The notes beneath the pieces are model-generated. The model had not been told where the DNA came from. It saw nothing but the letters and a program-made list of their open reading frames with translations, and ran no database searches. A stretch of DNA of 64,000 nucleotides from NCBI GenBank assembly GCA_026004395.1, contig BPJB01000001.1:519343-583342 (forward strand), written 5' to 3'. Shown one piece after another: positions 5,737 through 51,675 of the stretch. Each line of letters begins with the position of its first letter. The first letter of the stretch is position 1. Origin of the DNA: Patescibacteria group bacterium. Its GTDB lineage: Bacteria; Patescibacteriota; Microgenomatia; Levybacterales; UBA12049. A program made the position numbers and the translations under genes.

Positions 5737-8613
5737 ATGGACAAAATAATTATTAAAGGTGCAAGAGAACATAACCTTAAAAATATCGATTTAGAAATTC
5801 CCAAAAACAAATTAATTGTTCTAACTGGTCTTTCAGGAAGTGGTAAATCCTCTCTCGCATTTGACACAATTTACGCTGAAGGACAGCGGCGATACGTTGA
5901 GAGTTTATCGTCTTACGCAAGACAGTTTTTGGGTACCATGAAAAAGCCAGATGTAGATCTTATTGAAGGATTATCTCCGGCTATATCTATCGACCAAAAA
6001 TCTACATCACATAATCCTAGATCAACTGTAGGAACAGTGACAGAAATTTATGATTATTTGCGTCTTTTATTTGCACGCATAGGACACCCCCATTGTCCAA
6101 ACTGTGGTAGAGAAATTGCCAGACAGTCAAAAGAACAAATTACGGAGACTATACTTAAAATGCAAGATGGGAGAAGACCCTTTGTTCGCGTTCTAATCTT
6201 AGCACCTTTAGTAAAAGATAGAAAAGGAGAATATACAGAACTTTTCACATCTCTTAAAAAGAGAGGATACCGTAAAGTCAGGATCGATAGAAAAATATAT
6301 TCCCTTGATGATCAGATTGTATTAATCAAAACCAACAAACACTCTATTGAGTTAGTTATTGATACTCTGGTGATAGCAAAAGAAACAGATAAGAATCGCT
6401 TAGCAACCGATGTTGAACAAGCTCTGCAGTTTGGAAATGGAGAGATGATTGTAAGCATTATTAAGGATTCAACGTTTGATCTGCCTGAATTTCCTAAAGA
6501 AATGGAAGACCACCTTTTTTCAGAAAAGTTCGCATGTCCAGTATGTAATATCTCAATCTCTGAGATTGAACCACGAATTTTTTCATTTAATACACCTCAT
6601 GGGGCTTGCCCAGAATGTTCTGGTATAGGGAGGGTGCTTGTAGTTGATAAGGATTTAGTTTTTAACAATAATCTTACCATCAATGAAGGAGGCATCTTAC
6701 CATTTTTTAATTTGGGGACGAATGATACGTGGTTTTCAAGAACATTTAGAACATTTTGTGCTGAAAATGCAATTCCACTTGATAAAAAGATTGGAGAGTT
6801 GACAGAACAACAAAAAAACTTACTTCTTTATGGCACAGGTGAGAAAGAATACAGTGTAAGAGGAGAAAATAGATGGGGAAGTCAAACAGTAATCCGTGAA
6901 CCCTTTAGAGGAATTACCTTTGAACTAAGAAGAAGATACTCAGAATCAGAATCTGATTATGTGAAAACTCAAATCGAAAAATTTATGCGCTATGATCTTT
7001 GTCCTTCCTGCCAAGGTGCAAGACTTAAAAAAGAGGCACTTTCAGTCACAATTAAAGGTAAATCTATTGTAGATGTCAGTGATATGTCAATAGGGGATGT
7101 TTTAGACTTTTTTGAAACCTTGCCTGACTCACTATCAACGCGCGAGAAAGAAATTAGCGAGTTAATTTTGCGAGAGATAATCCAGCGCATAAGATTTCTT
7201 AAAGATGTAGGCCTTGAGTACCTAACTCTCTCACGCAGTGCCTCAACTCTTGCAGGGGGGGAAGCACAACGCATTAGATTAGCATCCCAAATAGGTAGCG
7301 GTCTCACAGGAGTGCTTTATGTGCTTGATGAACCTTCAATTGGTTTACATCAAAGAGATAATGAAAAACTAATTGAAACTTTAAAAAGACTACGCGATCT
7401 TGGAAATACTGTAATTGTTGTCGAACATGATGAAGATACTATGGCAGCATCAGATTATATTTTCGACTTTGGACCCGGAGCAGGAGAATTTGGAGGAGAA
7501 ATTGTCGCACAAGGTACTTATGAAGAGATTAAGAACAATGCCAATTCTCTGACAGGTCAGTATCTCTCCAAAAAAAAGGTCATAAAAGTTAATACCAGTA
7601 AACAAAGTACTATGGAAGAGTCATATTTAACTCTCGTTGGAGCATCTGAACATAATCTGAAAAACATCACAGTTAAATTTCCCCTTCGTAAATTTATCGT
7701 AGTAACTGGAGTCTCTGGAAGCGGTAAATCTACTTTAATTAATGATATTCTCTATCATGCACTAATGCAGATTAAAAATCCTTATCATCGACAGAAGCCT
7801 GGAAAATTTGTTGACATCTTGGGTTATGAACAAATTAAAAATGTATTTTTAATTGATCAGTCACCTATTGGTAGAACGCCTAGGAGCAACCCAGCAACTT
7901 ATACAGGTGCATTTACTTATATAAGAGACATCTTTTCTCAAACAAAAGAAGCGCGTCTTCGGGGATATGGACCGGGAAGATTTTCTTTTAATGTTAAAGG
8001 TGGACGATGTGAAGCTTGTGAAGGAGAAGGACAGATTAAAATTGAGATGCAGTTTCTACCTGATGTGTATATTACCTGTGAAGTTTGTCAAGGAAAGCAA
8101 TATAACAACGAAGCATTAGAAATCTTATTTAATGGTAAGAATATAGCTGATGTACTAAATATGAGTGTTCAAGAAGCATTGGATTTTTTCTCTTTTGTTC
8201 CGGGACTTGCACATAAACTGCAAACACTTATGGACGTTGGACTTTCTTATATTAAGTTGGGACAACCAGCTCCGACTTTATCAGGCGGAGAAGCACAACG
8301 GGTGAAGCTAGCTTCAGAACTTTCAAAGAGAGGTAGAGATGCACTTTATCTGCTTGATGAACCAACAACAGGTCTTCATTTTGCGGATCTTGAAAAACTT
8401 CTCTATGTTCTTCGAAAACTTGTAGATCAAGGAAATTCTGTTATTGTTATTGAACACAATCTTGAGGTAATCAAAAATGCTGATCACATAATTGATCTGG
8501 GTCCTGAAGGAGGAAAAAAAGGAGGAGAAATTGTCGCACAGGGTACACCTAATCAAATTGCTCAAAATTCCCTTTCTCATACTGGACGTTTTTTAAAACG
8601 TATCCTCAGCTAG
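5737..8613 (+). CDS. uvrA: Excinuclease ABC subunit A (UvrA)
   Basis: 958 aa with two ABC ATPase modules. Walker A motifs GLSGSGKSSLAFDTIYAEGQRRY and GVSGSGKSTLIN. Zinc-finger cysteines CPNCG, CPVC and CEAC. LSGGE signature motifs. Confidence 0.97.
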   Translation: MDKIIIKGAREHNLKNIDLEIPKNKLIVLTGLSGSGKSSLAFDTIYAEGQRRYVESLSSYARQFLGTMKKPDVDLIEGLSPAISIDQKSTSHNPRSTVGTVTEIYDYLRLLFARIGHPHCPNCGREIARQSKEQITETILKMQDGRRPFVRVLILAPLVKDRKGEYTELFTSLKKRGYRKVRIDRKIYSLDDQIVLIKTNKHSIELVIDTLVIAKETDKNRLATDVEQALQFGNGEMIVSIIKDSTFDLPEFPKEMEDHLFSEKFACPVCNISISEIEPRIFSFNTPHGACPECSGIGRVLVVDKDLVFNNNLTINEGGILPFFNLGTNDTWFSRTFRTFCAENAIPLDKKIGELTEQQKNLLLYGTGEKEYSVRGENRWGSQTVIREPFRGITFELRRRYSESESDYVKTQIEKFMRYDLCPSCQGARLKKEALSVTIKGKSIVDVSDMSIGDVLDFFETLPDSLSTREKEISELILREIIQRIRFLKDVGLEYLTLSRSASTLAGGEAQRIRLASQIGSGLTGVLYVLDEPSIGLHQRDNEKLIETLKRLRDLGNTVIVVEHDEDTMAASDYIFDFGPGAGEFGGEIVAQGTYEEIKNNANSLTGQYLSKKKVIKVNTSKQSTMEESYLTLVGASEHNLKNITVKFPLRKFIVVTGVSGSGKSTLINDILYHALMQIKNPYHRQKPGKFVDILGYEQIKNVFLIDQSPIGRTPRSNPATYTGAFTYIRDIFSQTKEARLRGYGPGRFSFNVKGGRCEACEGEGQIKIEMQFLPDVYITCEVCQGKQYNNEALEILFNGKNIADVLNMSVQEALDFFSFVPGLAHKLQTLMDVGLSYIKLGQPAPTLSGGEAQRVKLASELSKRGRDALYLLDEPTTGLHFADLEKLLYVLRKLVDQGNSVIVIEHNLEVIKNADHIIDLGPEGGKKGGEIVAQGTPNQIAQNSLSHTGRFLKRILS

Positions 8614-8644
8614 TCAATTTTGCATATTTTTAATACAATAAGTT

Positions 8645-10471
8645 TTGGAATATGTAAATTCGATGAAAAAATATTTTTTCTTTTTAATTACTTTTTTGCT
8701 ATATATTTTATCTCCAAATTTTGTATTTGCATCTGAATATTTCGATCGAGAATACACTGTCTTATATACAGTACAAGAAAATGGCACAACATCCGTACAG
8801 ATTACTATTACTTTAACCAATAAAACTAGCGATTACTATGCTTCATCGGATACATTGCAAGTGGGATTTGAAAGTATCACCAATGTCAAAGCATCAGATC
8901 CTGATGGACCACTTGAACCAAAAATAACAAAAACAGAGGCGGGTAATGAAATAGAGTTAACATTTAACAAAAAAGTTGTTGGAAAAGATAAAAAATTAGT
9001 ATACAATTTATCCTTTGATACACCTGACATTGCCAAGCATGATGGTAAGATATGGGAGATAAATATTCCCGGTATTGCAAATCCTGAAGAATTTAGCAAC
9101 TTTACTGCTGAAGTTAGAGTACCTTCAACATTTGGTAAACCTGCTTACATAAAACCATTTCAAAAAGATAATACATTGATCTTCTCAAAAGAACAATTAG
9201 GCAAATCTGGTATCTCTATAGCATTTGGAACAGAACAAATATATCAATTTAATCTTACCTATCATCTAAGAAATACAAATGTTTTTCCTATAAGAACGGA
9301 AATAGCACTACCTCCCACTACAAATTACCAAGAAGTTGTGATAGATGCAATTAATCCTCATCCTGAAAACGTGATAATTGATAAAGACGGAAATTGGCTT
9401 GCTGAGTATATACTTGCTCCTTCACAACGAATTGATGTTACAGCAAGGGGAAGAGTGCGAATATATCGTGAACCAAGACCAGAACCTTTATCAAAAGATG
9501 ATTTTAAGTTGTACACAAAAGAAAAACCATTTTGGCAATCAAATAATCCAACGATTAAAGAACTCGCACAAAAATTGAAGACACCTCGTGCAATCTATGA
9601 TTATGTGGTCAGCACGCTTGATTATGATTTTAGTAGGGTAACCCAAAACAAACCTAGACTTGGTGCTTTAAAAGCATTAGAAGAACCCCAATCAGCTGTA
9701 TGTTTGGAGTTTACCGATCTTTTTATAGCTCTTGCAAGAGCAGCTGGAATTCCTGCAAGAGAGATAAATGGTTATGCTCATACTGAAAATCCTAGACAAC
9801 GTCCTCTATCACTTGTGCAGGATATTCTTCACGCTTGGCCTGAATATTACGACTTCCAAAGACAAACATGGATCATGGTTGATCCAACATGGGAAAGTAC
9901 TACAGGAGGGATAGATTATTTCGATGTATTTGATTATGACCATATTACCTTCGTAAGAAAAGGTATTGATAGTCAGTATCCTATACCTCCGGGTGGGTAC
10001 AAATACTCTGGAGACGAAAAGAAAAAAGACATCTCAATAACTTTTGCAGACAGTTTTTCAAATGATATTCCCAAAATACAAATTGTGCCTATTTTTCCCG
10101 ACAAAGTATTAGCAGGAGTGGCAATCAACGGTAAAATTCAGGCAATCAACTTGAGTGGAAAACTGTCTGAAGCACAAACTGCATCTGTTACCTCTAAGAC
10201 TCTTACTCCCTCAATACAAACGATACTCATTCCTCAGTTACCTCCTTTTGGTAAAAAAGAGATTTCGTTTTCTTTTCATAAGACACCATTTTTAAGTCAC
10301 GGTACACATACTTTTACATTTACTCTTAATAATACTATAATTTTCCATAGTATTAAGGTTTCACCTTTTATGCTAGATAAAAATCAAATTTTTGGAGGTG
10401 TTGGAGTTGGAATATTCACGATCATCTTATTCATCATTGCCATCAAAGCCAGGAGTTTACGTTTTTCTTGA
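8645..10471 (+). CDS. Transglutaminase-like domain protein, membrane anchored
   Basis: N-terminal signal/TM segment. Transglutaminase-like Cys-His-Asp core: AVCLEFTDLF, HAWPEYYD, VDPTW. C-terminal TM segment. The likely true start is the internal ATG near 8663 (MKKYFFF). Confidence 0.75.
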   Translation: MEYVNSMKKYFFFLITFLLYILSPNFVFASEYFDREYTVLYTVQENGTTSVQITITLTNKTSDYYASSDTLQVGFESITNVKASDPDGPLEPKITKTEAGNEIELTFNKKVVGKDKKLVYNLSFDTPDIAKHDGKIWEINIPGIANPEEFSNFTAEVRVPSTFGKPAYIKPFQKDNTLIFSKEQLGKSGISIAFGTEQIYQFNLTYHLRNTNVFPIRTEIALPPTTNYQEVVIDAINPHPENVIIDKDGNWLAEYILAPSQRIDVTARGRVRIYREPRPEPLSKDDFKLYTKEKPFWQSNNPTIKELAQKLKTPRAIYDYVVSTLDYDFSRVTQNKPRLGALKALEEPQSAVCLEFTDLFIALARAAGIPAREINGYAHTENPRQRPLSLVQDILHAWPEYYDFQRQTWIMVDPTWESTTGGIDYFDVFDYDHITFVRKGIDSQYPIPPGGYKYSGDEKKKDISITFADSFSNDIPKIQIVPIFPDKVLAGVAINGKIQAINLSGKLSEAQTASVTSKTLTPSIQTILIPQLPPFGKKEISFSFHKTPFLSHGTHTFTFTLNNTIIFHSIKVSPFMLDKNQIFGGVGVGIFTIILFIIAIKARSLRFS

Positions 10472-11690
10472 TAAGAATCACAAGATTTTATATGTTGGGA
10501 AGGCAAAAGATCTAAAAGCTCGAGTTTCATCGTATTTTAATTCTCCTTCATCACTTGGTCCTAAGACCGCAACATTAGTAGAAAAAATCAAGTTCATTCG
10601 CATAACAGTTGTAGAGTCTGAGATTGAATCTCTTCTGCTTGAAGCTTTTTATATAAAGAAATATAAGCCTAAATATAATGTCAGACTTACAGATAATAAA
10701 TCATATCCTCTAGTTAGAATCACAATAAATCAAAAATATCCCGCAGTTCTTCTCGCAAGACGAATGGATGATCCAGATTCTTTGTACTTTGGCCCATTTC
10801 CCAATCCTTCTGCAGTAAGAATTGTCCTTAAGACTATAAGAAGAATCTTTCCTTTTGTCTCTGTACTAAATCACCCCAAAAGAACATGCCTTTATTATCA
10901 TCTTGGACTTTGTCCCTGTCCTCCTGTTAATGATTCCCCAGAACTTTATAAGTCATATAAATTGACAATTAAAAGAATAATTAGCATGTTTGAAGGAAAC
11001 TCAAAAAAACTTATAAAAGAGTTGGAGAAAGAAAGAGATAAAAAAAGCAAAGCTGAAAAATTTGAAGATGCACAAATGCTACAAAAGCAGATTAATGCTC
11101 TTTCACTTATTACCCATCCAGTTCACCAACCGTTTGAATACCATATTAACCCAAATTTGACAACAGATCTCAGAACACAGGAAATCAACGAACTTAAAGA
11201 TATTCTCAATGCTCATGGATATTCCATTACTAAACTTTTGAAAATTGAGTGTTTTGATATCTCTAATATTCAGGGAAAACACGCGACTGGCTCTCAAGTA
11301 GTGTTTGTCAATGGTGAGAAAGAAAGTTCTCTTTACAGACGGTATAGAGTAAAAATAGATGGCAAACCTAATGATTTTGCAATGATGAAGGAAGTAATAA
11401 GTAGAAGATTTAAAAATAAGCAGTGGGAATATCCTGATCTTGTCATAGTAGATGGGGGAAAAGGACAAATTTCATCAGCTTTAAAAGCAATGCAAGAGTT
11501 ATCTGTTACTTGCCCTGTAATAGGTCTGGCAAAACGAGAGGAAACTATCATTACGTCAACATTTAAAGAAATTTCTCTACCAAAAAACTCATTAGCACTG
11601 AAGCTTATTATGCGTATTCGCGATGAAGCTCATAGATTTGCAATTTTTTATCATAGAAAATTAAGAAGCAAATACGCACTTCAGAGTTAA
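10392..11690 (+). CDS. uvrC: Excinuclease ABC subunit C (UvrC), short form lacking the C-terminal (HhH)2 domain
   Basis: GIY-YIG motif GVYVFLDKNHKILYVGKAKDL..R. A Cys-rich region, a UvrBC-interaction region, and an RNase H-like endonuclease domain (DLVIVDGGKGQ, DEAHRF). It stops right after the HRKLR segment, where E. coli UvrC continues into an HhH domain. The annotated start overlaps the upstream gene by 80 nt, so the true start is uncertain. Confidence 0.88.
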   Translation: MEVLELEYSRSSYSSLPSKPGVYVFLDKNHKILYVGKAKDLKARVSSYFNSPSSLGPKTATLVEKIKFIRITVVESEIESLLLEAFYIKKYKPKYNVRLTDNKSYPLVRITINQKYPAVLLARRMDDPDSLYFGPFPNPSAVRIVLKTIRRIFPFVSVLNHPKRTCLYYHLGLCPCPPVNDSPELYKSYKLTIKRIISMFEGNSKKLIKELEKERDKKSKAEKFEDAQMLQKQINALSLITHPVHQPFEYHINPNLTTDLRTQEINELKDILNAHGYSITKLLKIECFDISNIQGKHATGSQVVFVNGEKESSLYRRYRVKIDGKPNDFAMMKEVISRRFKNKQWEYPDLVIVDGGKGQISSALKAMQELSVTCPVIGLAKREETIITSTFKEISLPKNSLALKLIMRIRDEAHRFAIFYHRKLRSKYALQS

Positions 11691-43840: not shown

Positions 43841-44174
43841 TGGTCGCAGTTACTGAACGCCGCTCGAACTTTCTTTGAACGACAATCTGCGCCCTGACGG
43901 GCGCAGAACCCGCCCAGCGGCTCGTCGCCTGACGGCGGCAGGCAAAGCCCGCAAAAATTTCCTTTTCTTTTAAGGGGGACGCGCAAAAAATTTTTTCAAT
44001 TAAGGAAACAATTTTTGCGGGCTTTGCCTCTTTGCTGGCGCAAAGACGAGCCGCTTCCCACCCCCAGTCCGCCTTCGGCGGACAGAGCAGGCGGGCAAAA
44101 ATTCCTTCCCCCAGACCCCCTTCCTTTTTGCCCGCCTGCTTGGGCTTCGCCCTAAAATTTTTTGGCGGGACTAT
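43841..44174 (+). repeat. IR1-L: 334 bp GC-rich hairpin-rich repeat, left copy
   Basis: Exact reverse complement of 49416-49749, checked segment by segment. Built from consecutive stem-loops, e.g. CTGCGCCC-TGAC-GGGCGCAG, TCCGCC-TTCG-GGCGGA, GGCAAAGCCCGCAAAAATT...AATTTTTGCGGGCTTTGCC and GCAGGCGGGCAAAAA...TTTTTGCCCGCCTGC. Confidence 0.85.
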
Positions 44175-44203
44175 AAATCAAAAAGGGCGGTGGGTGGGGT
44201 TAG

Positions 44204-45868
44204 TTACATTAAAACTGTTTTCATTAATTCTTTCAAATAATCAGGTTCTAACAAATCGTTTTCTGAATTAATATTATTCCAACCATCCTTCTCTCCTTTA
44301 TTGTGTTTATAATACATCTCCGGTGCACCGTGTCGCAACACAAAGAATCTTTTATCCTGTAAACTCCGTATCAAATCATCAAAACCATCAGGCACTCCTT
44401 TTTCATCTAATTTTTGAACTATATAATCTAGTTTCGGATCACCATCATTTTGCCAATCAATGTGTGCACGAAACCTCCTGAGCAACTCTTTTTCCAGTCC
44501 AAATTCTTCGAGCAGATACTCTATATCACGACTAAATAGATAATCCAAATCGCATATCACAGCAATATCATCAAAACACATCTGCTGATAAAATTTTCTC
44601 GCCAACCTTAATTGCTTTTTGCCATCGGCTTTAATGAAAAGAGTAAATTTTCCCTTTGGAGGATGAATATTAAAAATGATTTTTAATTTTTCATAAAAAT
44701 TCTCGTCATGACTGCCTTCAATTAAAACAACGCTGTCAGCAAATAACCCTTCAAGATTTCCACGACGCTCAAGGTGTCGTTTAACTAAACTTACATCAAC
44801 GCTGGATGGATTGAGAGCGATATTTTTGGTTCCTTCCTCTTTAGTTTTTCTTACTCTCCGATAGCCCTCAATAGTTGTTGGTGTAACAATGAAAGGTGAA
44901 TGTGTAGTTGTTACTATCTGATAACGCTCCATCATTTGGATTAAAGCATTTGCCATCTCACGTTGAGCATACGGATGAAGAAAAGATTCTAATTCTCCAA
45001 TTAAAAATATTGGCGCAGGACGATCTTGGTATCTTTTGCCTTTTTTAGCTAGCAACTTCAAAAAAGCTAATAATGTTGCTCTCTGCAAGCCATGCCCTTT
45101 TTGTTCTACTTCTGTTTTATGTCCATCATCAAGGAAAATCTTCATCTCTTTTGCAATAACAGTTTCGTCTGGTAAACCAAATTCAACAGATGGTGTAATA
45201 TCACTAAATTCACCCATAAATTCTTCTTTTAATCCAGCCTCGAACTCTGTGATTGCTTTGGAGCGTACTCCCTCTTCTTCGCTATGGAGGAAATTGTCTA
45301 AATCTGTTAAAACAGATTTTGTTTTAACAGCTAATTCTTGAAAAAATGAACTCATTACTTCTTTTTTTAATTTTCCCAATGCTGTTGTAGATTTATCAGT
45401 TAATTCTTGAACAGTATCAGCAGTAGCTGGAATTGATATAACATCTGGGAGAATTTTTAATAAATTTCCTGTAAAACCACTTGGATTGTGTAAAGTGCCA
45501 TCTTCTTTATAAATACCAATCTGAGCACCCGACTCCGGAGTTAGTATAGAGGCAATTTTCAAAATACCATTATCAATAGCGTTTTCTATTGCCTCTTTGT
45601 GATTACTAGCCTTTACTAAATGAGTAAAATCACTAATTCCTGCAAATTCGCCCTCTAAAACTATCGGTTTATCTTTGTCATGTTGCCATTTTGGAATATG
45701 CTCCTTCCTTATTCCAGTAGATAGCAATAATTCAGTTGCCTTCAGATAATGTGACTTCCCTGCGTTGTTTCTACCAACAAAAAAAGTAAATTCATTGAAA
45801 AAAACCTCATCTTCTTTGATTGGTCCTAAATTTTTAATTGTTAACTTTTTTAATAAAACCCTACTCAT
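44204..45868 (-). CDS. OLD-family ATP-dependent endonuclease (AAA ATPase plus Toprim), GajA-like
   Basis: N-terminal LTIKNLGPIK...FTFFVGRNNAGKSHYLKA (Walker A of the AAA_15/21 family). ABC-like signature and Walker B FLIGELESFLHP. C-terminal Toprim with VVLIEGSHDE and a DxD in VICDLDYL. Confidence 0.8.
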   Translation of the reverse strand: MSRVLLKKLTIKNLGPIKEDEVFFNEFTFFVGRNNAGKSHYLKATELLLSTGIRKEHIPKWQHDKDKPIVLEGEFAGISDFTHLVKASNHKEAIENAIDNGILKIASILTPESGAQIGIYKEDGTLHNPSGFTGNLLKILPDVISIPATADTVQELTDKSTTALGKLKKEVMSSFFQELAVKTKSVLTDLDNFLHSEEEGVRSKAITEFEAGLKEEFMGEFSDITPSVEFGLPDETVIAKEMKIFLDDGHKTEVEQKGHGLQRATLLAFLKLLAKKGKRYQDRPAPIFLIGELESFLHPYAQREMANALIQMMERYQIVTTTHSPFIVTPTTIEGYRRVRKTKEEGTKNIALNPSSVDVSLVKRHLERRGNLEGLFADSVVLIEGSHDENFYEKLKIIFNIHPPKGKFTLFIKADGKKQLRLARKFYQQMCFDDIAVICDLDYLFSRDIEYLLEEFGLEKELLRRFRAHIDWQNDGDPKLDYIVQKLDEKGVPDGFDDLIRSLQDKRFFVLRHGAPEMYYKHNKGEKDGWNNINSENDLLEPDYLKELMKTVLM

Positions 45869-45883
45869 AGAGTTCTTGTAATT

Positions 45884-46804
45884 TTATAAATCAAATCTTT
45901 TGTTTAATTTGTACATTTTGTTATCTAATAGTTTCAAATTCTTTTCTTTATTTTTCCAAATTTCTTTAAAATCCTTGTCTCTCATTGTGCGAATTTCACC
46001 AAGATAGACAGATACATAACAACCATTTACTTTTGTCTCTTTCGCTTGTTTTAGATTTTTTTCTGTAATTTTTATATACTGAGGGTCAATATCTATCCCA
46101 ATATACTTTCGTCCTAAACGTTTAGCGGCGACAGCGGTAGTTCCCGTACCAATGAATGGATCAAATACAATATCTCCCTCGTCGGTACTCATCAAAATAA
46201 GTCTCTCTAGTAATGGCACAGGTAATTGACAAGGATGTTCGTCTCTTCGTTTTTTATGACGGATTCTGTGAATGTCAGACCAAACATCGGAAAGAAGAGG
46301 GCCAAAGCCATGTGCTTGATCCTTTTTACCCCCATAATCTTTCAAAAACTCCTTACAGACACGACAGCGTGGATGTGGATATCTAATGTCATAAAACTTA
46401 AAATCCTTGTATGATTTTGATTTTGTGTAATATAAAATCCCATAGTGATTCGGTAAAAGCGTCTTGCCCATCGGTGCACCACCGGAATCCCAAGTAATCC
46501 AATGCCTAAAATAGGCGATTTTGTTTAGGTACTCGGCAAAGTGCGATAACCAACGGGGAATATTATGAACAAAAATAGATCCGCTTGGTTTTGTAATTCT
46601 CACCATCTCGTTCATCCATTTATTGCACCATTCTAAATACTCCTCTTTTTCTTTTGTGTCCTCATAGTGGTTATATTTTTTCTTCAAGTTAAAAGGCGGG
46701 TCAGCAAAAGTCATATCCACTGAATTGTCAGGGATATCTTTCATCACTTCCAAACAATCGCCTAGAATAATTTTGTTCTCAAATTTTTTAATATCTTTGC
46801 CCAT
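45884..46804 (-). CDS. DNA amino-methyltransferase (N6A/N4C, beta-class order IV then I)
   Basis: Motif IV TFADPPFN near the N-terminus. Motif I DIVFDPFIGTGTTAVAA near the C-terminus. Confidence 0.85.
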   Translation of the reverse strand: MGKDIKKFENKIILGDCLEVMKDIPDNSVDMTFADPPFNLKKKYNHYEDTKEKEEYLEWCNKWMNEMVRITKPSGSIFVHNIPRWLSHFAEYLNKIAYFRHWITWDSGGAPMGKTLLPNHYGILYYTKSKSYKDFKFYDIRYPHPRCRVCKEFLKDYGGKKDQAHGFGPLLSDVWSDIHRIRHKKRRDEHPCQLPVPLLERLILMSTDEGDIVFDPFIGTGTTAVAAKRLGRKYIGIDIDPQYIKITEKNLKQAKETKVNGCYVSVYLGEIRTMRDKDFKEIWKNKEKNLKLLDNKMYKLNKRFDL

Positions 46805-46806
46805 AA

Positions 46807-47826
46807 CTACTTGTTGAATACGGTTGATAACAATTCTTTAAAGCGATTAAGTTCCTCTTTGTGAAAAGTAAATACTTCATCATAAGCTCCAACCATTCTT
46901 TTAAGGTCGTTTTTTCTTACATACCAACCAATACCATCCACAAAACCAATAAATAGAGCTTTGGGATAATGCTTTTTGATGAGCTTAGCAACATTTATCT
47001 CTGTTTTTGCTTTGTCTCCTTGGCCAGAGGAAGTCGTTACAACATAAGAAGACTCGACAATCAATAATGGATTATTCTGATCGGGAATAATAAAATCCAT
47101 TGTTCGTTTTTCTTCATCCAGTACACCAACTAATTTTTGTAGATCTCCAGAAGTATATGGTATTTCAAGCTCCTCTAAAATTTTCTCAATAAGCACTTCT
47201 GGGTTATTTTCTTTTTTACCGGCATACGATCCTTTTTCTTTGTAGCGTATTAAAGTATCAACAAGAGATTCTATTTTAAATTCCAGCTTTTCAACACTTA
47301 GCTTTTTAAGTTCAAATAAAGGCAGGGCTTGAGTTAGTACAGGAACGGTAGAGCCCTCAAAAAATATATTTACAATTCCTTTCGCAAAGTTTTCATTATT
47401 CTTTATTAGATTAGCAATCTTTGAGTCGCTCCATTCACTAACTCCTCCCTCATCAATTTCTTCTGTTCCTGTTTGCCATTTATCTTTCAATGTAAGCCTG
47501 TTTAATTCCTCATCGTCAATCACTCTTATTAGAGTTATTAAGCGTTTTAAATATTCATTTGAGATGCCAGTCAATGCAAGTAGTGCTCGCAAGCCGTTTT
47601 TCTTATTGCGGATTAATTCAACAAAAAAGTCTTTCTTAAGTCCTTCTGTTGAGACTTTATTTCGCAATACTAAAAGTAATTCTTTGATTGAAGAAATATA
47701 GCCCTCGTATTTTTCCTCAAAATCACGGTCGTAAAGATAAAAGGTATTTTTATCTATAACCAGCTTAAATTTTGATTCAGTTGTGGGTTTTGAAATTTTA
47801 ATCATATTTTTATTTGTCATTTTCAA
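46807..47826 (-). CDS. Hypothetical protein, candidate restriction endonuclease of the RM operon
   Basis: 339 aa with no family match. The position between two MTase genes and a C-terminal MDFIIPDQNNPLLIVESSY stretch with possible PD..E nuclease residues suggest the R subunit. This is an inference from context only. Confidence 0.3.
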   Translation of the reverse strand: MKMTNKNMIKISKPTTESKFKLVIDKNTFYLYDRDFEEKYEGYISSIKELLLVLRNKVSTEGLKKDFFVELIRNKKNGLRALLALTGISNEYLKRLITLIRVIDDEELNRLTLKDKWQTGTEEIDEGGVSEWSDSKIANLIKNNENFAKGIVNIFFEGSTVPVLTQALPLFELKKLSVEKLEFKIESLVDTLIRYKEKGSYAGKKENNPEVLIEKILEELEIPYTSGDLQKLVGVLDEEKRTMDFIIPDQNNPLLIVESSYVVTTSSGQGDKAKTEINVAKLIKKHYPKALFIGFVDGIGWYVRKNDLKRMVGAYDEVFTFHKEELNRFKELLSTVFNK

Positions 47827-49039
47827 AAATTAAAATATATTCTTCCTTCATCGTATTTTGGAGACCTTTAATTGGTTTCAAAATTTCAAAAAGAAATTTA
47901 AACTTTTGCCCTTCTGCTAATTCTTTAATTTTCGTCTCCAATCTAACACCTTTTGTCTGAATATCGTTAGTTCCAACCACAAAAATAGTTTTGCTACCCT
48001 TTTTACTAACTCTTGCCAATTCTCTAAACACTTTATCAAGCATTTCAAAATAAAGTTCCAACTTTTGACTTATTCCTCTGCCTTGCAAACCAATCATCTT
48101 TTCTTTTAACTTGTCTGGGGCATAGCCAAGATATTCCAATTGTGGTTTATCATTATCTACATAATCTATTGCAAAAGAATAAGGCGGGGAGGTAATTACG
48201 CCGTCAACGCTATTATCTTCCAAGGGTAATTTTAACGCACTATCTTCAATAATTTTACTTTTCCCTATTTTTAAACCTAATTTTTCTCTTGCATTTTGGA
48301 AATTTTTGATAGTTGTTATATACCTGTTAAGTACAATTGGAAAAAGAGCACTTAACGATTTAGAGCTTCTGCGCGCGAAACCCACGGCATCAAGATAGGC
48401 TAATAAAGCAACTTCGTAGTATGACCTATCTTCATCGTCGCCATCTTTTATAAAATAGTGCGGTACTTTATCCTTGTTTAACTTTTTAAAAATTTTATTT
48501 TGTTCGTGGGTTATTTGAGTAAGTTTTTCGCTGTTAAGATTTAAGGCAAAAGTTTTTACTCTGCCCATCAAACAACAAAAGGGACTTACATCGACGCCCA
48601 CTGAATCAATGCCTAACAAATTTGCCTCTACTGATAAAGTCGCACTACCAGACATTGGATCAAGAACAACATTGCCCGGTTTTAGACCCATCATATTTAG
48701 TAAAGCCCTTATCATCTGTGGATGAAATTTGCCTCTATATGGGAATAAACTATGAGTGGCGTATCCTGTAGAATATTTACCATTTAAGAAAAAGGCTTTT
48801 GTGCGTAAGGAACTATTGCGATGTATATCTTCTAAATTTTGAAGATTGCAAGTCTGGTAGTGAATCGTTGGCTCGCCTTCTACTGATTTAAAGTATGCAC
48901 TGCGCCTAATTAAATCTTTTTTATTAAGATTTTCATATTCCCAAATAGCAAAATTTAACTCAAAAATTTCATCAGTCCCATCAATTAACTGATAGTCAGT
49001 AGGAAATAATTTTTTTGTTATTGGTTGAAAATTTTGCAT
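47810..49039 (-). CDS. DNA amino-methyltransferase (order I then IV, SPPY)
   Basis: Motif I VVLDPMSGSATL precedes motif IV VITSPPYSFAIDY. This is a second, differently organised MTase in the same operon. Confidence 0.7.
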   Translation of the reverse strand: MQNFQPITKKLFPTDYQLIDGTDEIFELNFAIWEYENLNKKDLIRRSAYFKSVEGEPTIHYQTCNLQNLEDIHRNSSLRTKAFFLNGKYSTGYATHSLFPYRGKFHPQMIRALLNMMGLKPGNVVLDPMSGSATLSVEANLLGIDSVGVDVSPFCCLMGRVKTFALNLNSEKLTQITHEQNKIFKKLNKDKVPHYFIKDGDDEDRSYYEVALLAYLDAVGFARRSSKSLSALFPIVLNRYITTIKNFQNAREKLGLKIGKSKIIEDSALKLPLEDNSVDGVITSPPYSFAIDYVDNDKPQLEYLGYAPDKLKEKMIGLQGRGISQKLELYFEMLDKVFRELARVSKKGSKTIFVVGTNDIQTKGVRLETKIKELAEGQKFKFLFEILKPIKGLQNTMKEEYILIFENDK

Positions 49040-49041
49040 AG

Positions 49042-49254
49042 TTATTTAATCAAATCATCAATCGGCACATCTAATGCTTTCGCAAGTTTAGTTATAGTTT
49101 CAAAAGTAGGATTTTTATTTACTCCATTCTCAATTTTTACAACGGTATTTAATGAAAGATCTGCAAGACGAGCCACTTTCTCAAGAGAATAGCCCTTTTT
49201 AGCCCTTAATTTTTTTAGATTATCCGATATTTTATTTGACATTTGCATATCCAT
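49042..49254 (-). CDS. XRE-family HTH protein, probable RM controller (C) protein
   Basis: 70 aa. LKKLRAKKGYSLEKVARLADLSLNTVVKIENGVNKNPTFETITKLAKALDV is a classic XRE HTH of C-protein size. It is the first gene of the minus-strand operon. A candidate promoter lies at 49330-49365 on the minus strand: -35 TTGATG, -10 TGGATAAT. Confidence 0.7.
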   Translation of the reverse strand: MDMQMSNKISDNLKKLRAKKGYSLEKVARLADLSLNTVVKIENGVNKNPTFETITKLAKALDVPIDDLIK

Positions 49255-49415
49255 TGTTTAACATTATAGTATATAGATTATATTCTAAACTTTCTTATTT
49301 TTCTATTATAATGATAACTAATTATCCAGAAAAAGTAAAGAAAAATCATCAAGGGAGTTTCCTTTTGTCGCCCGCGCATGGGTTGGGTGGGGCAAGGGCG
49401 ACTATAAAAAATACA

Positions 49416-49749
49416 ATAGTCCCGCCAAAAAATTTTAGGGCGAAGCCCAAGCAGGCGGGCAAAAAGGAAGGGGGTCTGGGGGAAGGAATTTTTGCCCGCC
49501 TGCTCTGTCCGCCGAAGGCGGACTGGGGGTGGGAAGCGGCTCGTCTTTGCGCCAGCAAAGAGGCAAAGCCCGCAAAAATTGTTTCCTTAATTGAAAAAAT
49601 TTTTTGCGCGTCCCCCTTAAAAGAAAAGGAAATTTTTGCGGGCTTTGCCTGCCGCCGTCAGGCGACGAGCCGCTGGGCGGGTTCTGCGCCCGTCAGGGCG
49701 CAGATTGTCGTTCAAAGAAAGTTCGAGCGGCGTTCAGTAACTGCGACCA
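49416..49749 (-). repeat. IR1-R: 334 bp inverted copy of IR1-L
   Basis: Perfect reverse complement of 43841-44174. It overlaps IR2-L by the hexamer CGACCA (49744-49749). Confidence 0.85.
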
Positions 49750-49902
49750 TACGATACTTTCAGAGTTTTTGGGCGAGTTTGATTGCTCGCTCGCCTCGCC
49801 AGAGGCGAGGCTCGCTTCGCAAATTTCCTTATATTTCGGCACTAAATCAAGGGGCGGACGGAAATCAAAGAGGATTTTTCTGTCCAGCAGGCGGCGGTTC
49901 GT
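49744..49902 (+). repeat. IR2-L: 159 bp GC-rich repeat upstream of the serine recombinase gene
   Basis: Exact reverse complement of 51446-51604. Contains hairpins GCGAG-TTTGATT-GCTCGC and GCCTCGCC-AGA-GGCGAGGC. Confidence 0.85.
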
Positions 49903-50074
49903 GGACGCAAAGCGCCCAGGGCAAAAGCCACCTTATAGAAAATCTATTGAATGCTTTTGCTCTCCAATTTTTTCCGCCTTTTGCCAAAGGTAAAAGAACA
50001 AAGCAAGTTTTTAATCTCGCGCTTTACACTGCGCCACAGGCGCAGTGGCCAAAGGCGACTAACCTAAAAGCAAT

Positions 50075-51664
50075 ATGAAGATCAAATACTTTTTATACGC
50101 TCGCAAATCAACAGAGGACGAAGAAAGACAAGTGATGTCTATTGAAGCCCAGCTTGCGGAGTTGGCGGAATATGCCAAGCGCGAAGGGCTGGAAATTATT
50201 GAGCAGTTTGTGGAAAGCAAAAGCGCAAAGAAGCCCGGGCGAGAAATTTTTAATAAGATGATTGAAAAAATCCATACCAGCAAAAGCCCGGTTGGCATTT
50301 TAGCGTGGCACCCTGATAGATTGGCAAGAAACAGCGTTGACGGCGGGCAGGTTATTTACCTCATAGACCAAGGCAAAATCGCTTCTTTGCGCTTTCCTAC
50401 TTTTTGGTTTGAGCCAACTCCGCAAGGACTTTTTATGCTTCAAGTCGCCTTTGGCCAAAGTAAGTATTACTCGGACAACTTGTCCGAGAATGTAAAGCGC
50501 GGGATTCGCCAAAAACTCAGGCGCGGGGAATATCCGGGCAAAGCTCCGCTTGGATATGTAAATAATCCCAAGACAAGGAACATTGAGCCAGACCCGACCA
50601 AAGCAAAAATTGTGGCAAAAGCCTTTGAGGAGTTTGCCCAAGGAAAGCACACTCTCAAAAGTTTAGGCGAGCGCCTGAGTTTTTGGGGCGTGGTGAGCAA
50701 AAACGGCACACCTCTTGCCAAAGCCACAATCCAACGAATGCTCACTAATCCAACTTATCTCGGCTTGATTGTCCACAAGGGCGAAACCTACGAGGGCAAG
50801 TTTCCTCCAATTATTTCCAGAGCGACTTTTTCAGCCGTTCAAAAAATGTTGAAGCAGAGAGCAAGGCCGCGCAAAACAAGAAAAGGACACAACTTCCCGT
50901 TTGTCGGGCTTTTCCGGTGCGGAGAGTGCGGCGGTATGATAACCGCGCAGTGGGCAAAAGGAAAATACCGCTACTACCGGTGCACAAAGAAGTTTGACAA
51001 ATGCAGCCAAGGATACTTGCGCGAGGACTTGCTCGTTGCCCAGCTTAAAGAAAAGCTGAAAAAAGTCGCTCTCTGCGAAGACTGGGCGGAAAAGATGTTG
51101 GTAAAGGTAGATGAATGGGAAAAGGAACAAGCCCAGTCTTCGCAGTCTTTCGCCCAAAATCTTGAGGAGAAAATCAAAGAAACCGAACAAAAGCTGGATA
51201 GATTAGTTAACGCCTTTTTGGACGGCACCATTGAAAAAGAGACCTATCTTGCCAAGAAAGACGAACTCATTAAAACTAAAACCGCCCTTCTGGAAAAGAA
51301 AGGCGATTTTGGGCGAAAGGGAAACAATTGGATCGAACCATTGAGAAATTGGATAAAAGACGCTCACCACGCCGAAAAACTTGCTTTGTCTCAACCCAGC
51401 CCATTAGATTTATATGAATGGGCTGGGTTTGCGGAAAAAATTGGAACGAACCGCCGCCTGCTGGACAGAAAAATCCTCTTTGATTTCCGTCCGCCCCTTG
51501 ATTTAGTGCCGAAATATAAGGAAATTTGCGAAGCGAGCCTCGCCTCTGGCGAGGCGAGCGAGCAATCAAACTCGCCCAAAAACTCTGAAAGTATCGTATG
51601 GTCGGGGACAGAGGACTCGAACCTCCGACCTCACGGTCCCAAACCGCGCGCTCTAGCCAACTGA
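50075..51664 (+). CDS. Large serine recombinase (serine integrase/transposase type)
   Basis: N-terminal resolvase catalytic domain with YARKSTEDEERQVMSIEAQ (catalytic Ser in RKST), a recombinase domain, a zinc ribbon CGECGG...YRCTKKFDKC, and a coiled-coil. GC content is about 50% against a roughly 33% background. The last ~50 codons lie inside IR2-R and the final ~20 codons run into tRNA-Pro, so the C-terminal extent is uncertain. Confidence 0.85.
   Translation: MKIKYFLYARKSTEDEERQVMSIEAQLAELAEYAKREGLEIIEQFVESKSAKKPGREIFNKMIEKIHTSKSPVGILAWHPDRLARNSVDGGQVIYLIDQGKIASLRFPTFWFEPTPQGLFMLQVAFGQSKYYSDNLSENVKRGIRQKLRRGEYPGKAPLGYVNNPKTRNIEPDPTKAKIVAKAFEEFAQGKHTLKSLGERLSFWGVVSKNGTPLAKATIQRMLTNPTYLGLIVHKGETYEGKFPPIISRATFSAVQKMLKQRARPRKTRKGHNFPFVGLFRCGECGGMITAQWAKGKYRYYRCTKKFDKCSQGYLREDLLVAQLKEKLKKVALCEDWAEKMLVKVDEWEKEQAQSSQSFAQNLEEKIKETEQKLDRLVNAFLDGTIEKETYLAKKDELIKTKTALLEKKGDFGRKGNNWIEPLRNWIKDAHHAEKLALSQPSPLDLYEWAGFAEKIGTNRRLLDRKILFDFRPPLDLVPKYKEICEASLASGEASEQSNSPKNSESIVWSGTEDSNLRPHGPKPRALAN
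51446..51604 (-). repeat. IR2-R: inverted copy of IR2-L, inside the recombinase 3' end and abutting tRNA-Pro
   Basis: Perfect reverse complement of 49744-49902. Its last 6 bp (TGGTCG on the plus strand) are the 3' terminal CGACCA of tRNA-Pro. Confidence 0.85.
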
Positions 51665-51675
51665 GCTAGTCCCCG
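51599..51675 (-). tRNA. tRNA-Pro (anticodon TGG), CCA encoded
   Basis: 77 nt. Acceptor CGGGGAC/GTCCCCG. Anticodon stem-loop CGCGG-TTTGGGA-CCGTG. T-loop TTCGAGT. 3' ACCA. The 3' end coincides with the element boundary. Confidence 0.8.

Follow-up and report, generated by a model that had tools for sequence, protein, structure and literature searches.

The 64-kb stretch of a Patescibacteria genome analysed here (contig BPJB01000001.1; hereafter the window) contains two 334-bp inverted repeats. These are very likely the two copies of one arm, arm A, of a compact integrative element of 7,764 bp that is mobilised by a large serine recombinase (LSR) and inserted at the 3' end of a proline transfer RNA gene (tRNA-Pro). 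Inverted repeats of at least 60 nt form only two pairs in the window, one of 334 nt and one of 159 nt. The first pair is 100% reverse-complementary across a spacer of 5241 nt, and the base-for-base match claimed in a preliminary description of this DNA holds at 334 of 334 positions. The second pair, arm B, is likewise perfect and brackets the recombinase gene. Its left copy abuts the right copy of arm A (A'), and six base pairs, CGACCA, are common to both. The order of the locus is host-left flank, A, 5241 bp, A', B, 172 bp, recombinase gene, B' and tRNA-Pro (Table 1). The preliminary description had missed the abutting second pair, the insertion of the whole 7.76-kb block at tRNA-Pro and the passage of the recombinase open reading frame (ORF) through the other repeat.

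Junctions and alleles of the element

The element has three junctions: host with A, B' with A, and B' with tRNA. The core TGGTCG is the sole sequence common to all of them. Their sequences fit the attL/attP/attR pattern of a conservative site-specific recombinase, with a putative intact attP kept inside the element. Together with its flanks, this internal attP occupies 493 bp and lies inverted between the cargo and the recombinase gene.

Both states of the insertion site were found in other samples. A Logan contig from another sample (L081), of a near-identical strain, is the empty site: the host-left flank, at 98–99% identity, is joined to tRNA-Pro at the core, the junction reading ...TTTTAGATTGGTCG followed directly by GGGACAGAGG.... 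A contig from a third sample (L082) is occupied: tRNA-Pro continues into B', and the contig ends after 24 nt of the repeat. Samples DRR290133 and SRR27730024 are those with the occupied and empty alleles. A unitig from the same sample as L082 (L086) consists of exactly the 5241-bp spacer and 30 nt of each arm, as a k = 31 graph yields when a unique segment is enclosed by inverted copies of the same sequence. The empty site, the occupied site and the unitig therefore identify 43841–51604 (7,764 bp) as one mobile insertion, and its repeats as real. With an intact tRNA, empty and occupied alleles and insertion at the 3' end, the locus has the features of a tRNA-gene island.

Table 1. Features of the element and of its integration site in the window.
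Feature	Position	Strand	Remarks
Arm A, left copy (IR1-L)	43841..44174	+	P'-type half-site at ~43847-43885, then palindromic hairpin chain
Core, left junction (host-left with A), attL-like	43841..43846	+	TGGTCG, reverse complement of the tRNA-Pro end CG-A-CCA
Junction host with A, attL-like			TTTTAGAT-TGGTCG-CAGTTACTG
Hairpin, arm A fold	43886-43907		9-bp stem, TGAC loop
Outer helix, arm A fold	43915-43926 paired with 44045-44055		
Hairpin, arm A fold	43926-43937		
Hairpin, arm A fold	43940-44029		20-bp stem, 50-nt loop
Hairpin, arm A fold	44030-44045		
Hairpin, arm A fold	44067-44083		
Hairpin, arm A fold; family-wide hairpin module	44086..44140	+	16-bp stem, 23-nt loop TTCCTTCCCCCAGACCCCCTTCC, purine/pyrimidine mirror repeat; second copy 49450-49504
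Hairpin, arm A fold	44142-44152		
Backbone extension just inside arm A	44175..44203	+	G-rich, GGGCGGTGGGTGGGG; conserved in L087 with different cargo
Cargo, five genes	44204..49254	-	Pfam: OLD-like AAA_15/TOPRIM ATPase, N4/N6 methyltransferase, DpnII-like endonuclease, second methyltransferase, helix-turn-helix (HTH) controller
Hairpin between cargo and A'	49367..49402	+	GTCGCCC-GCGCATGGGTTGGGTGGGGCAA-GGGCGAC; G-rich loop, co-varying stems
Arm A, right copy (IR1-R, A')	49416..49749	-	exact reverse complement of 43841-44174
Core of internal attP, intact but inverted	49744..49749	-	B' with A on the minus strand
Junction B' with A	inverted at 49744		GTATCGTA-TGGTCG-CAGTTACTG
Arm B, left copy	49744..49902	+	inverted copy of the recombinase gene 3' end, upstream of that gene
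Unique region upstream of recombinase gene	49903..50074	+	collinear with L084, ~80% identity
LSR ORF, 529 codons	50075..51664	+	reads through arm B' and the core, ends in tRNA-Pro antisense
Arm B, right copy (B')	51446..51604	+	P-type half-site; encodes recombinase residues ~458-510
Junction B' with tRNA, attR-like			GTATCGTA-TGGTCG-GGGACAGAGG
tRNA-Pro (TGG), integration target	51599..51675	-	intact; 3' end CGACCA = core; ARAGORN and Rfam

The recombinase and its relatives

Three Pfam domains were detected in the recombinase, in the order PF00239 Resolvase (E = 9.7e-22), PF07508 Recombinase (7.8e-17) and PF13408 Zn_ribbon_recom (4.2e-12), and the N-terminal motif YARKST holds the presumed catalytic serine. 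No stop interrupts the ORF ahead of the crossover, and it terminates within the tRNA-Pro antisense; the same is true of 32 of 32 related loci checked. In all 32 the ORF crosses the core, and the inner end of B has a conserved position, at residues 452–474. Because the ORF spans the crossover, integration and excision would therefore alter the C-terminal tail of the protein.

Relatives of this enzyme are numerous. Those 58–80% identical number in the hundreds in one-genome-per-species contigs, and more than 7,800 protein clusters match it at E < 1e-20, the best 120 being at least 70% identical. The sources name the homologous clusters only 'recombinase family protein'. Overall, homologues of 58–93% identity occur in Patescibacteria, Omnitrophota, Planctomycetia, Gammaproteobacteria, Bacteroidia, Actinomycetota and others. 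Among annotated phage and plasmid integrases, the search returned only relatives below 30% identity, and a scan of IMG/VR viral contigs with the recombinase found no close relative. The Protein Data Bank offered only distant LSR catalytic domains and SPbeta SprA (E ~5e-5), and an exact look-up of the sequence returned no record.

We scored repeat architecture by self-comparison of 80 related loci. A B-type pair of 90–200 nt, mostly 98–100% identical, flanks the recombinase in most of them, and an abutting A-type pair of 107–435 nt surrounds 1.1–8.9 kb of other genes in the ~20 loci with enough upstream DNA. The complete layout occurs in about 20 of 83 related loci, which come from many phyla. 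Homologous recombinases adjoin the module in other loci; recurrence beside serine recombinases was a point that the preliminary description had proposed to check. The junctions decompose in the same way (host with A, inverted B' with A, B' with tRNA) in every resolved locus, about 20 besides the window. In these loci the core matches the 3' end of the local tRNA (TGGTCG, TGGCTG, TGGTGG or TTGTGC), and the cores shared elsewhere place the crossover within TCG or GTGG, at the discriminator/first acceptor base pair. The C-terminus of the recombinase is abutted by a tRNA 3' end in 64 of 83 loci, 44 of them tRNA-Pro and the rest including Ala, Gln and Trp.

Two simpler schemes were ruled out by these comparisons. 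A palindromic crossover dinucleotide (CG), which would permit recombination without regard to orientation, is incompatible with the TGGCTG and TGGTGG cores of other lineages. Nor can A-cargo-A' and B-recombinase-B' be independent cassettes with palindromic circle junctions, since B adjoins the conserved A half-site in essentially every locus.

Many related contigs begin 47–136 nt upstream of B, at a break in the repeat, and many homologues lie on contigs of ~2 kb. These elements systematically break short-read assemblies at tRNA genes. A metagenome scan with a 28-nt piece of arm A returned a single locus, L087. In L076, two elements of the family lie side by side (6393–8117 and 8165–11595), at tRNA-Ser and tRNA-Ala, each with its own recombinase and inverted pair. 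At L085 (10001–11590), a recombinase 83% identical to that of the window has B' beside tRNA-Pro and neither a left B nor an A arm. A host gene lies 108 bp upstream of it, and the locus is apparently a remnant left stranded.

Attachment site and hairpin arrays within the arms

In an alignment of the B' with A junction from 31 loci, sequence conservation reaches only ~28 bp into B' and ~40 bp into A around the core. The consensus reads ..AAAA..GAAAGT......TGGTCG on the B' side and ..TACTGAACG.AGCTCGAACCTATTTTGA on the A side. At ~70 bp, the conserved stretch is the size of a serine-integrase attP, and its two parts correspond to putative half-sites. On the A side (the P' arm), the motif 'CTCGAAC' is separated from the core by 5 bp more than the T-loop copy of this motif in the tRNA half. 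Rutherford et al. are said to have described, in 2013, a half-turn offset between the attP and attB half-sites of LSRs, which the 5-bp shift of CTCGAAC matches. The preliminary description, which had offered a recombination scaffold for the adjacent recombinase as one function of the repeats, was right in essence, because the outer ~45 bp of each copy are the conserved attachment half-site, with the core as the first 6 bp.

The remaining ~290 bp of arm A are conserved across the family in structure, not in sequence. Folded as single-stranded DNA, arm A has a minimum free energy of −95.8 kcal/mol, and none of 100 dinucleotide shuffles (−57.1 ± 3.9) folded as stably (z = −9.9). The preliminary description had called for a comparison with shuffled controls and had listed at least seven stem-loops; seven hairpins were located. 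Some details had to be revised. The G+C content of the arm is 55.7% (33.8% in the cargo between the arms), lower than the ~60% first given, although the background of about 0.33 for the whole window was correct. The two long hairpins are present, with stems of 20 and 16 bp and not 15–19 bp, and the supposed UUCG tetraloop disappears, as two 'TTCG' caps are better read as TTC triloops on 7-bp and 4-bp stems.

A sister element, L084, whose recombinase is 85% identical to that of the window, shows how the arms change. Both of its A arms align over their full length to arm A of the window at ~80% identity. Seven base pairs of arm A differ between the two elements with both partners replaced, and paired cells amount to 89.6%, versus 39–51% in slid controls. 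The A arms of L084 are 93.8% identical to each other and its B arms 80%. Most of the ~20% differences that set the L084 arms apart from the window are common to both arms, which indicates that the arms evolve in concert within an element. The double-repeat layout is found throughout the clade down to 58% protein identity, with most arm pairs 98–100% identical and some 80–92%, so the arms have been homogenised repeatedly within lineages. Recent duplication and ongoing homogenisation had both been proposed for the perfect identity of the repeats; homogenisation is supported.

One hairpin is family-wide. Twenty loci carry the type at 44086–44140, in either orientation relative to the core. Its purine mirror-repeat loop, GGAAGGGGG-N-GGGGGAAGGAA, is conserved and sits on 19 different perfectly complementary stems of 7–17 bp. 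The stems were compared by direct stem extraction; the consensus that RNAalifold drew from a MAFFT alignment was meaningless, with the stems out of register. In this hairpin and in the comparison of the window with L084, the helices are maintained by compensatory changes, a point that the preliminary description had wished to see examined.

At gathering scores, only tRNAs passed an Rfam search of the whole window. In E-value mode the best matches of the arm regions were microRNA models, at 14–26 bits against gathering scores of 67–160. Promoter and terminator scans gave no excess over shuffles, and the idea that the hairpins are mere terminators was dropped for want of such an excess. We infer that the hairpin array is a DNA-level or strand-symmetric feature of the arm and not a classical RNA gene, because its stems are plain Watson-Crick palindromes, both strands fold alike and the orientation is variable.

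The same observations bear on a structured non-coding RNA, such as a guide or regulatory RNA for the recombinase, encoded by one or both copies, which the preliminary description had listed as an option. Such an RNA would be in keeping with the very stable fold of the arm, with helices kept by compensatory changes between the window and L084, and with a hairpin of conserved loop and co-varying stems in 20 loci. We nevertheless consider it very unlikely. The Rfam matches amount to sub-threshold microRNA noise, and promoters and terminators are in no convincing excess. The palindromes are perfect, show no evident G-U enrichment and fold alike on both strands, the conserved hairpin points either way with respect to the core, and outside the ~70-bp site primary sequence is not conserved across the family. 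To our knowledge, LSRs do not use RNA.

The arms might instead be selfish miniature palindromic repeats, akin to miniature inverted-repeat transposable elements (MITEs) or repetitive extragenic palindromes, that colonise non-coding DNA and have no part in recombination. The hairpins are built as modules whose number varies and which may face either way, and in L010, L032 and L047 one palindrome has been replaced by another at the same place in both arms. However, 33 of 35 hairpins from a pattern scan lie in A or A', and the only two inverted pairs of at least 60 nt in the window are both arms of the element. There are no target-site duplications and no DDE transposase, the sole enzyme being the serine recombinase, and elements that differ in cargo keep the same inner boundary of arm A. 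The arms lack the hallmarks of a MITE of an insertion sequence, the kind of known repeat family that the preliminary description had weighed against a structured role, and a purely selfish origin seems to us very unlikely.

Proposed movement, cargo and known systems

As an LSR-mobilised element, the block would move as follows. Recombination of its two ends would produce a 7.76-kb circle in which two 493-bp inverted repeats, each with an attP, separate segments of 5241 bp and 1543 bp. The internal attP would remain reactive. The arms would be kept identical by gene conversion in place or by re-pairing at a single-stranded transfer stage. At L034 (941–2936), a recombinase module lies between two different convergent tRNA-Pro genes, with two attR-type junctions and arms 80% identical. 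This arrangement suggests the product expected if an internal attP had recombined with the attB of a second tRNA. L028 (9642–11571) resembles L034, with a module between two convergent tRNA-Pro genes, and may be an assembly path. In L048 and L056, the tRNA lies on the promoter side of the recombinase gene.

Several points weigh against an LSR-mobilised element of this kind. No recognisable directionality factor gene was found, and across the cargos no accessory gene is conserved except a small HTH gene in some. LSRs require only ~50-bp sites and a directionality factor, and ~290 bp of hairpins per arm find no explanation in anything known of them. A circle with two identical attP sites should make both orientations common; the recombinase gene is flipped relative to the tRNA in only 4 of ~68 informative loci, several of them decayed. 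This bias requires an extra assumption, either selection against the flipped state or a cis-preference. If gene conversion were common enough to preserve arm identity, it ought to invert the modules as well. Excision, the circle and inversion are themselves proposals that derive from sequence comparison. The explanation we prefer for the bias is that the common orientation would be stable, with tRNA transcription opposing the recombinase gene, whereas in the flipped orientation it would drive that gene and make active copies unstable.

A more speculative use of the arms, which we think improbable, is that they pair with each other and so allow a serine-integrase element without a directionality factor to move across phyla as single-stranded DNA. 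A would pair with A' and B with B'. Stacked on each other, the resulting two long hairpins would restore a duplex attP, which the host flanks would leave at the crossover. The local hairpins with their conserved loops could then act as signals for protection or priming. Every passage would pair the arms anew and thereby correct them, which would explain why they are perfect in most copies and diverged in stranded ones. Single-stranded movement would also explain the fixed orientation and the presence of 70–93% identical recombinases in unrelated phyla without transfer genes. In a variant of this scheme, the internal attP would substitute in cis for a directionality factor.

The cargo differs widely between elements and is rich in restriction-modification genes. 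In 20 loci (69 ORFs) it includes type I, II and III restriction-modification genes, AbiU2, LexA-like proteins, RadC, a P-type ATPase, ArsP, ALAD, a glycosyltransferase and thioredoxin, and in L084 and L087 it is wholly different from that of the window despite window-type arms. These two elements and the window share a backbone of arms, an inner boundary ...AAAATTTTTTGGCGG, the G-rich stretch at 44175–44203 and the hairpin at 49367–49402. That hairpin, with its G-rich loop, was also found in L010, L014, L032, L047, L053, L058 and L083. The G-rich sequences at the two cargo ends, kept despite the different cargo, could mark the boundary at which cargo is exchanged. The motif TGGGTGGGG occurs in direct orientation at both cargo ends, at 44192 and 49385; as a target duplication, this 9-bp direct repeat was rejected, as it is not general across loci. 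In several loci with otherwise different restriction-modification cargo, the first cargo gene beside A' encodes an HTH protein of ~70 residues (Xre/C-protein-like). The copies, 39–52% identical, lie at 49042–49254 in the window, 8991–9206 in L010, 8933–9154 in L023, 4750–4962 in L031 and 10195–10410 in L083.

Inverted repeats with the core at their ends that bracket a restriction-modification operon beside a serine recombinase could be read as an invertible phase-variation switch (inverton or shufflon) in which the recombinase flips the cargo. In L038, L041 and L061 the conserved G-rich motif stands inverted at the opposite cargo end, which suggests past cargo flips. As an account of the repeats, however, a switch is highly improbable. 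The arms are identical, so inversion alters no junction and no relation of promoter to gene, and the orientation of the recombinase gene is nearly fixed. The whole block is an insertion with an empty allele, sister elements carry unrelated cargo, and the enzyme is of the large serine integrase type and not a Hin/Gin-type invertase.

An assembly artefact, whether a fold-back chimera or a wrongly joined repeat graph, has next to no probability as the source of the repeats. Both pairs are 100% identical, many related contigs stop inside the repeats and L028 is possibly a mis-walked path, but the same architecture appears in ~20 independent assemblies, the diverged arms of L084 (93.8% and 80%) cannot be collapsed by an assembler, the Logan unitig ends as the repeats predict, with 30 nt of each arm beside the spacer, and the empty and occupied alleles match the junctions exactly.

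The LSR-mobilised element shares much with known large serine integrases (phiC31, Bxb1, A118/LI, SPbeta SprA, CcrAB and TnpX). It has the Resolvase, Recombinase and zinc-ribbon domains, the features of conservative recombination at a very short core between an element site of ~50–70 bp and a host site, attL-like and attR-like products, and empty/occupied polymorphism. It differs in its distant sequence (<30% identity), its tRNA 3' end targets and an ORF that spans the site. It also keeps a second complete attP with long flanks inverted inside the element, lacks a recognisable directionality factor, and measures only a few kb without phage or conjugation genes.

In its layout, the element recalls the yeast 2-micron plasmid, the class-E genome of herpes simplex with its two adjacent flanked segments, and the C-segment of phage P1. 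The 2-micron plasmid carries FLP/FRT in 599-bp perfect inverted repeats, and the P1 C-segment has its cix sites at 0.6-kb inverted repeats. In all of these, sites in long perfect repeats that stay identical split a molecule into two isomerisable segments, the molecule here being the proposed circle. FLP is a tyrosine recombinase acting on a replicon, herpes simplex uses homologous recombination and Cin is a small invertase; unlike these systems, the present one is an integrated element with a serine integrase and no replication gene, in which one orientation dominates. Integron attC sites and the attP1/attP2 hairpin of CTX phage offer another parallel. There, inverted sequences pair to rebuild a site, as the arms might do here; stems co-vary and unpaired features are conserved. 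They are short hairpins used by tyrosine recombinases (IntI, XerCD), whereas the arms here are 159–334 bp long and 1.5–5 kb apart.

Tycheposons, too, are small elements inserted at tRNA genes, and defence or niche genes are frequent in their cargo. Their integrases are mostly of the tyrosine type, a minority using large serine recombinases, and many carry replication genes (bioRxiv 10.1101/2020.12.28.424599). The paper that describes them reports neither long inverted repeats nor an internal attP copy (bioRxiv 10.1101/2020.12.28.424599). In a full-text literature search, no account turned up of serine-integrase elements that have an inverted attP in their interior, long perfect arms or hairpin arrays. 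While the enzyme family and the attP/attB logic have precedents, none came to light for the duplicated inverted site, the pair of flanked modules, the site-spanning ORF or the co-varying hairpin arms.

The relatives of this element would make up a very large uncharacterised family of compact serine-integrase elements. Near-universal tRNA 3' ends as targets and a distribution over many phyla, from the candidate phyla radiation to Actinomycetota, make it a candidate route of gene flow, much of it of restriction-modification genes, in lineages poor in known vectors. The double inverted-repeat layout, with its internal attP and co-varying hairpins, is not accounted for by present models of serine integrases. 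Genome engineers would also have an interest in integrases able to act on a defined tRNA site across many phyla.

Elsewhere in the window, the region 61001–63000 has a G+C content of ~0.41 over the ORFs at 61144–62328 and 62392–62997, compared with ~0.32 around it.

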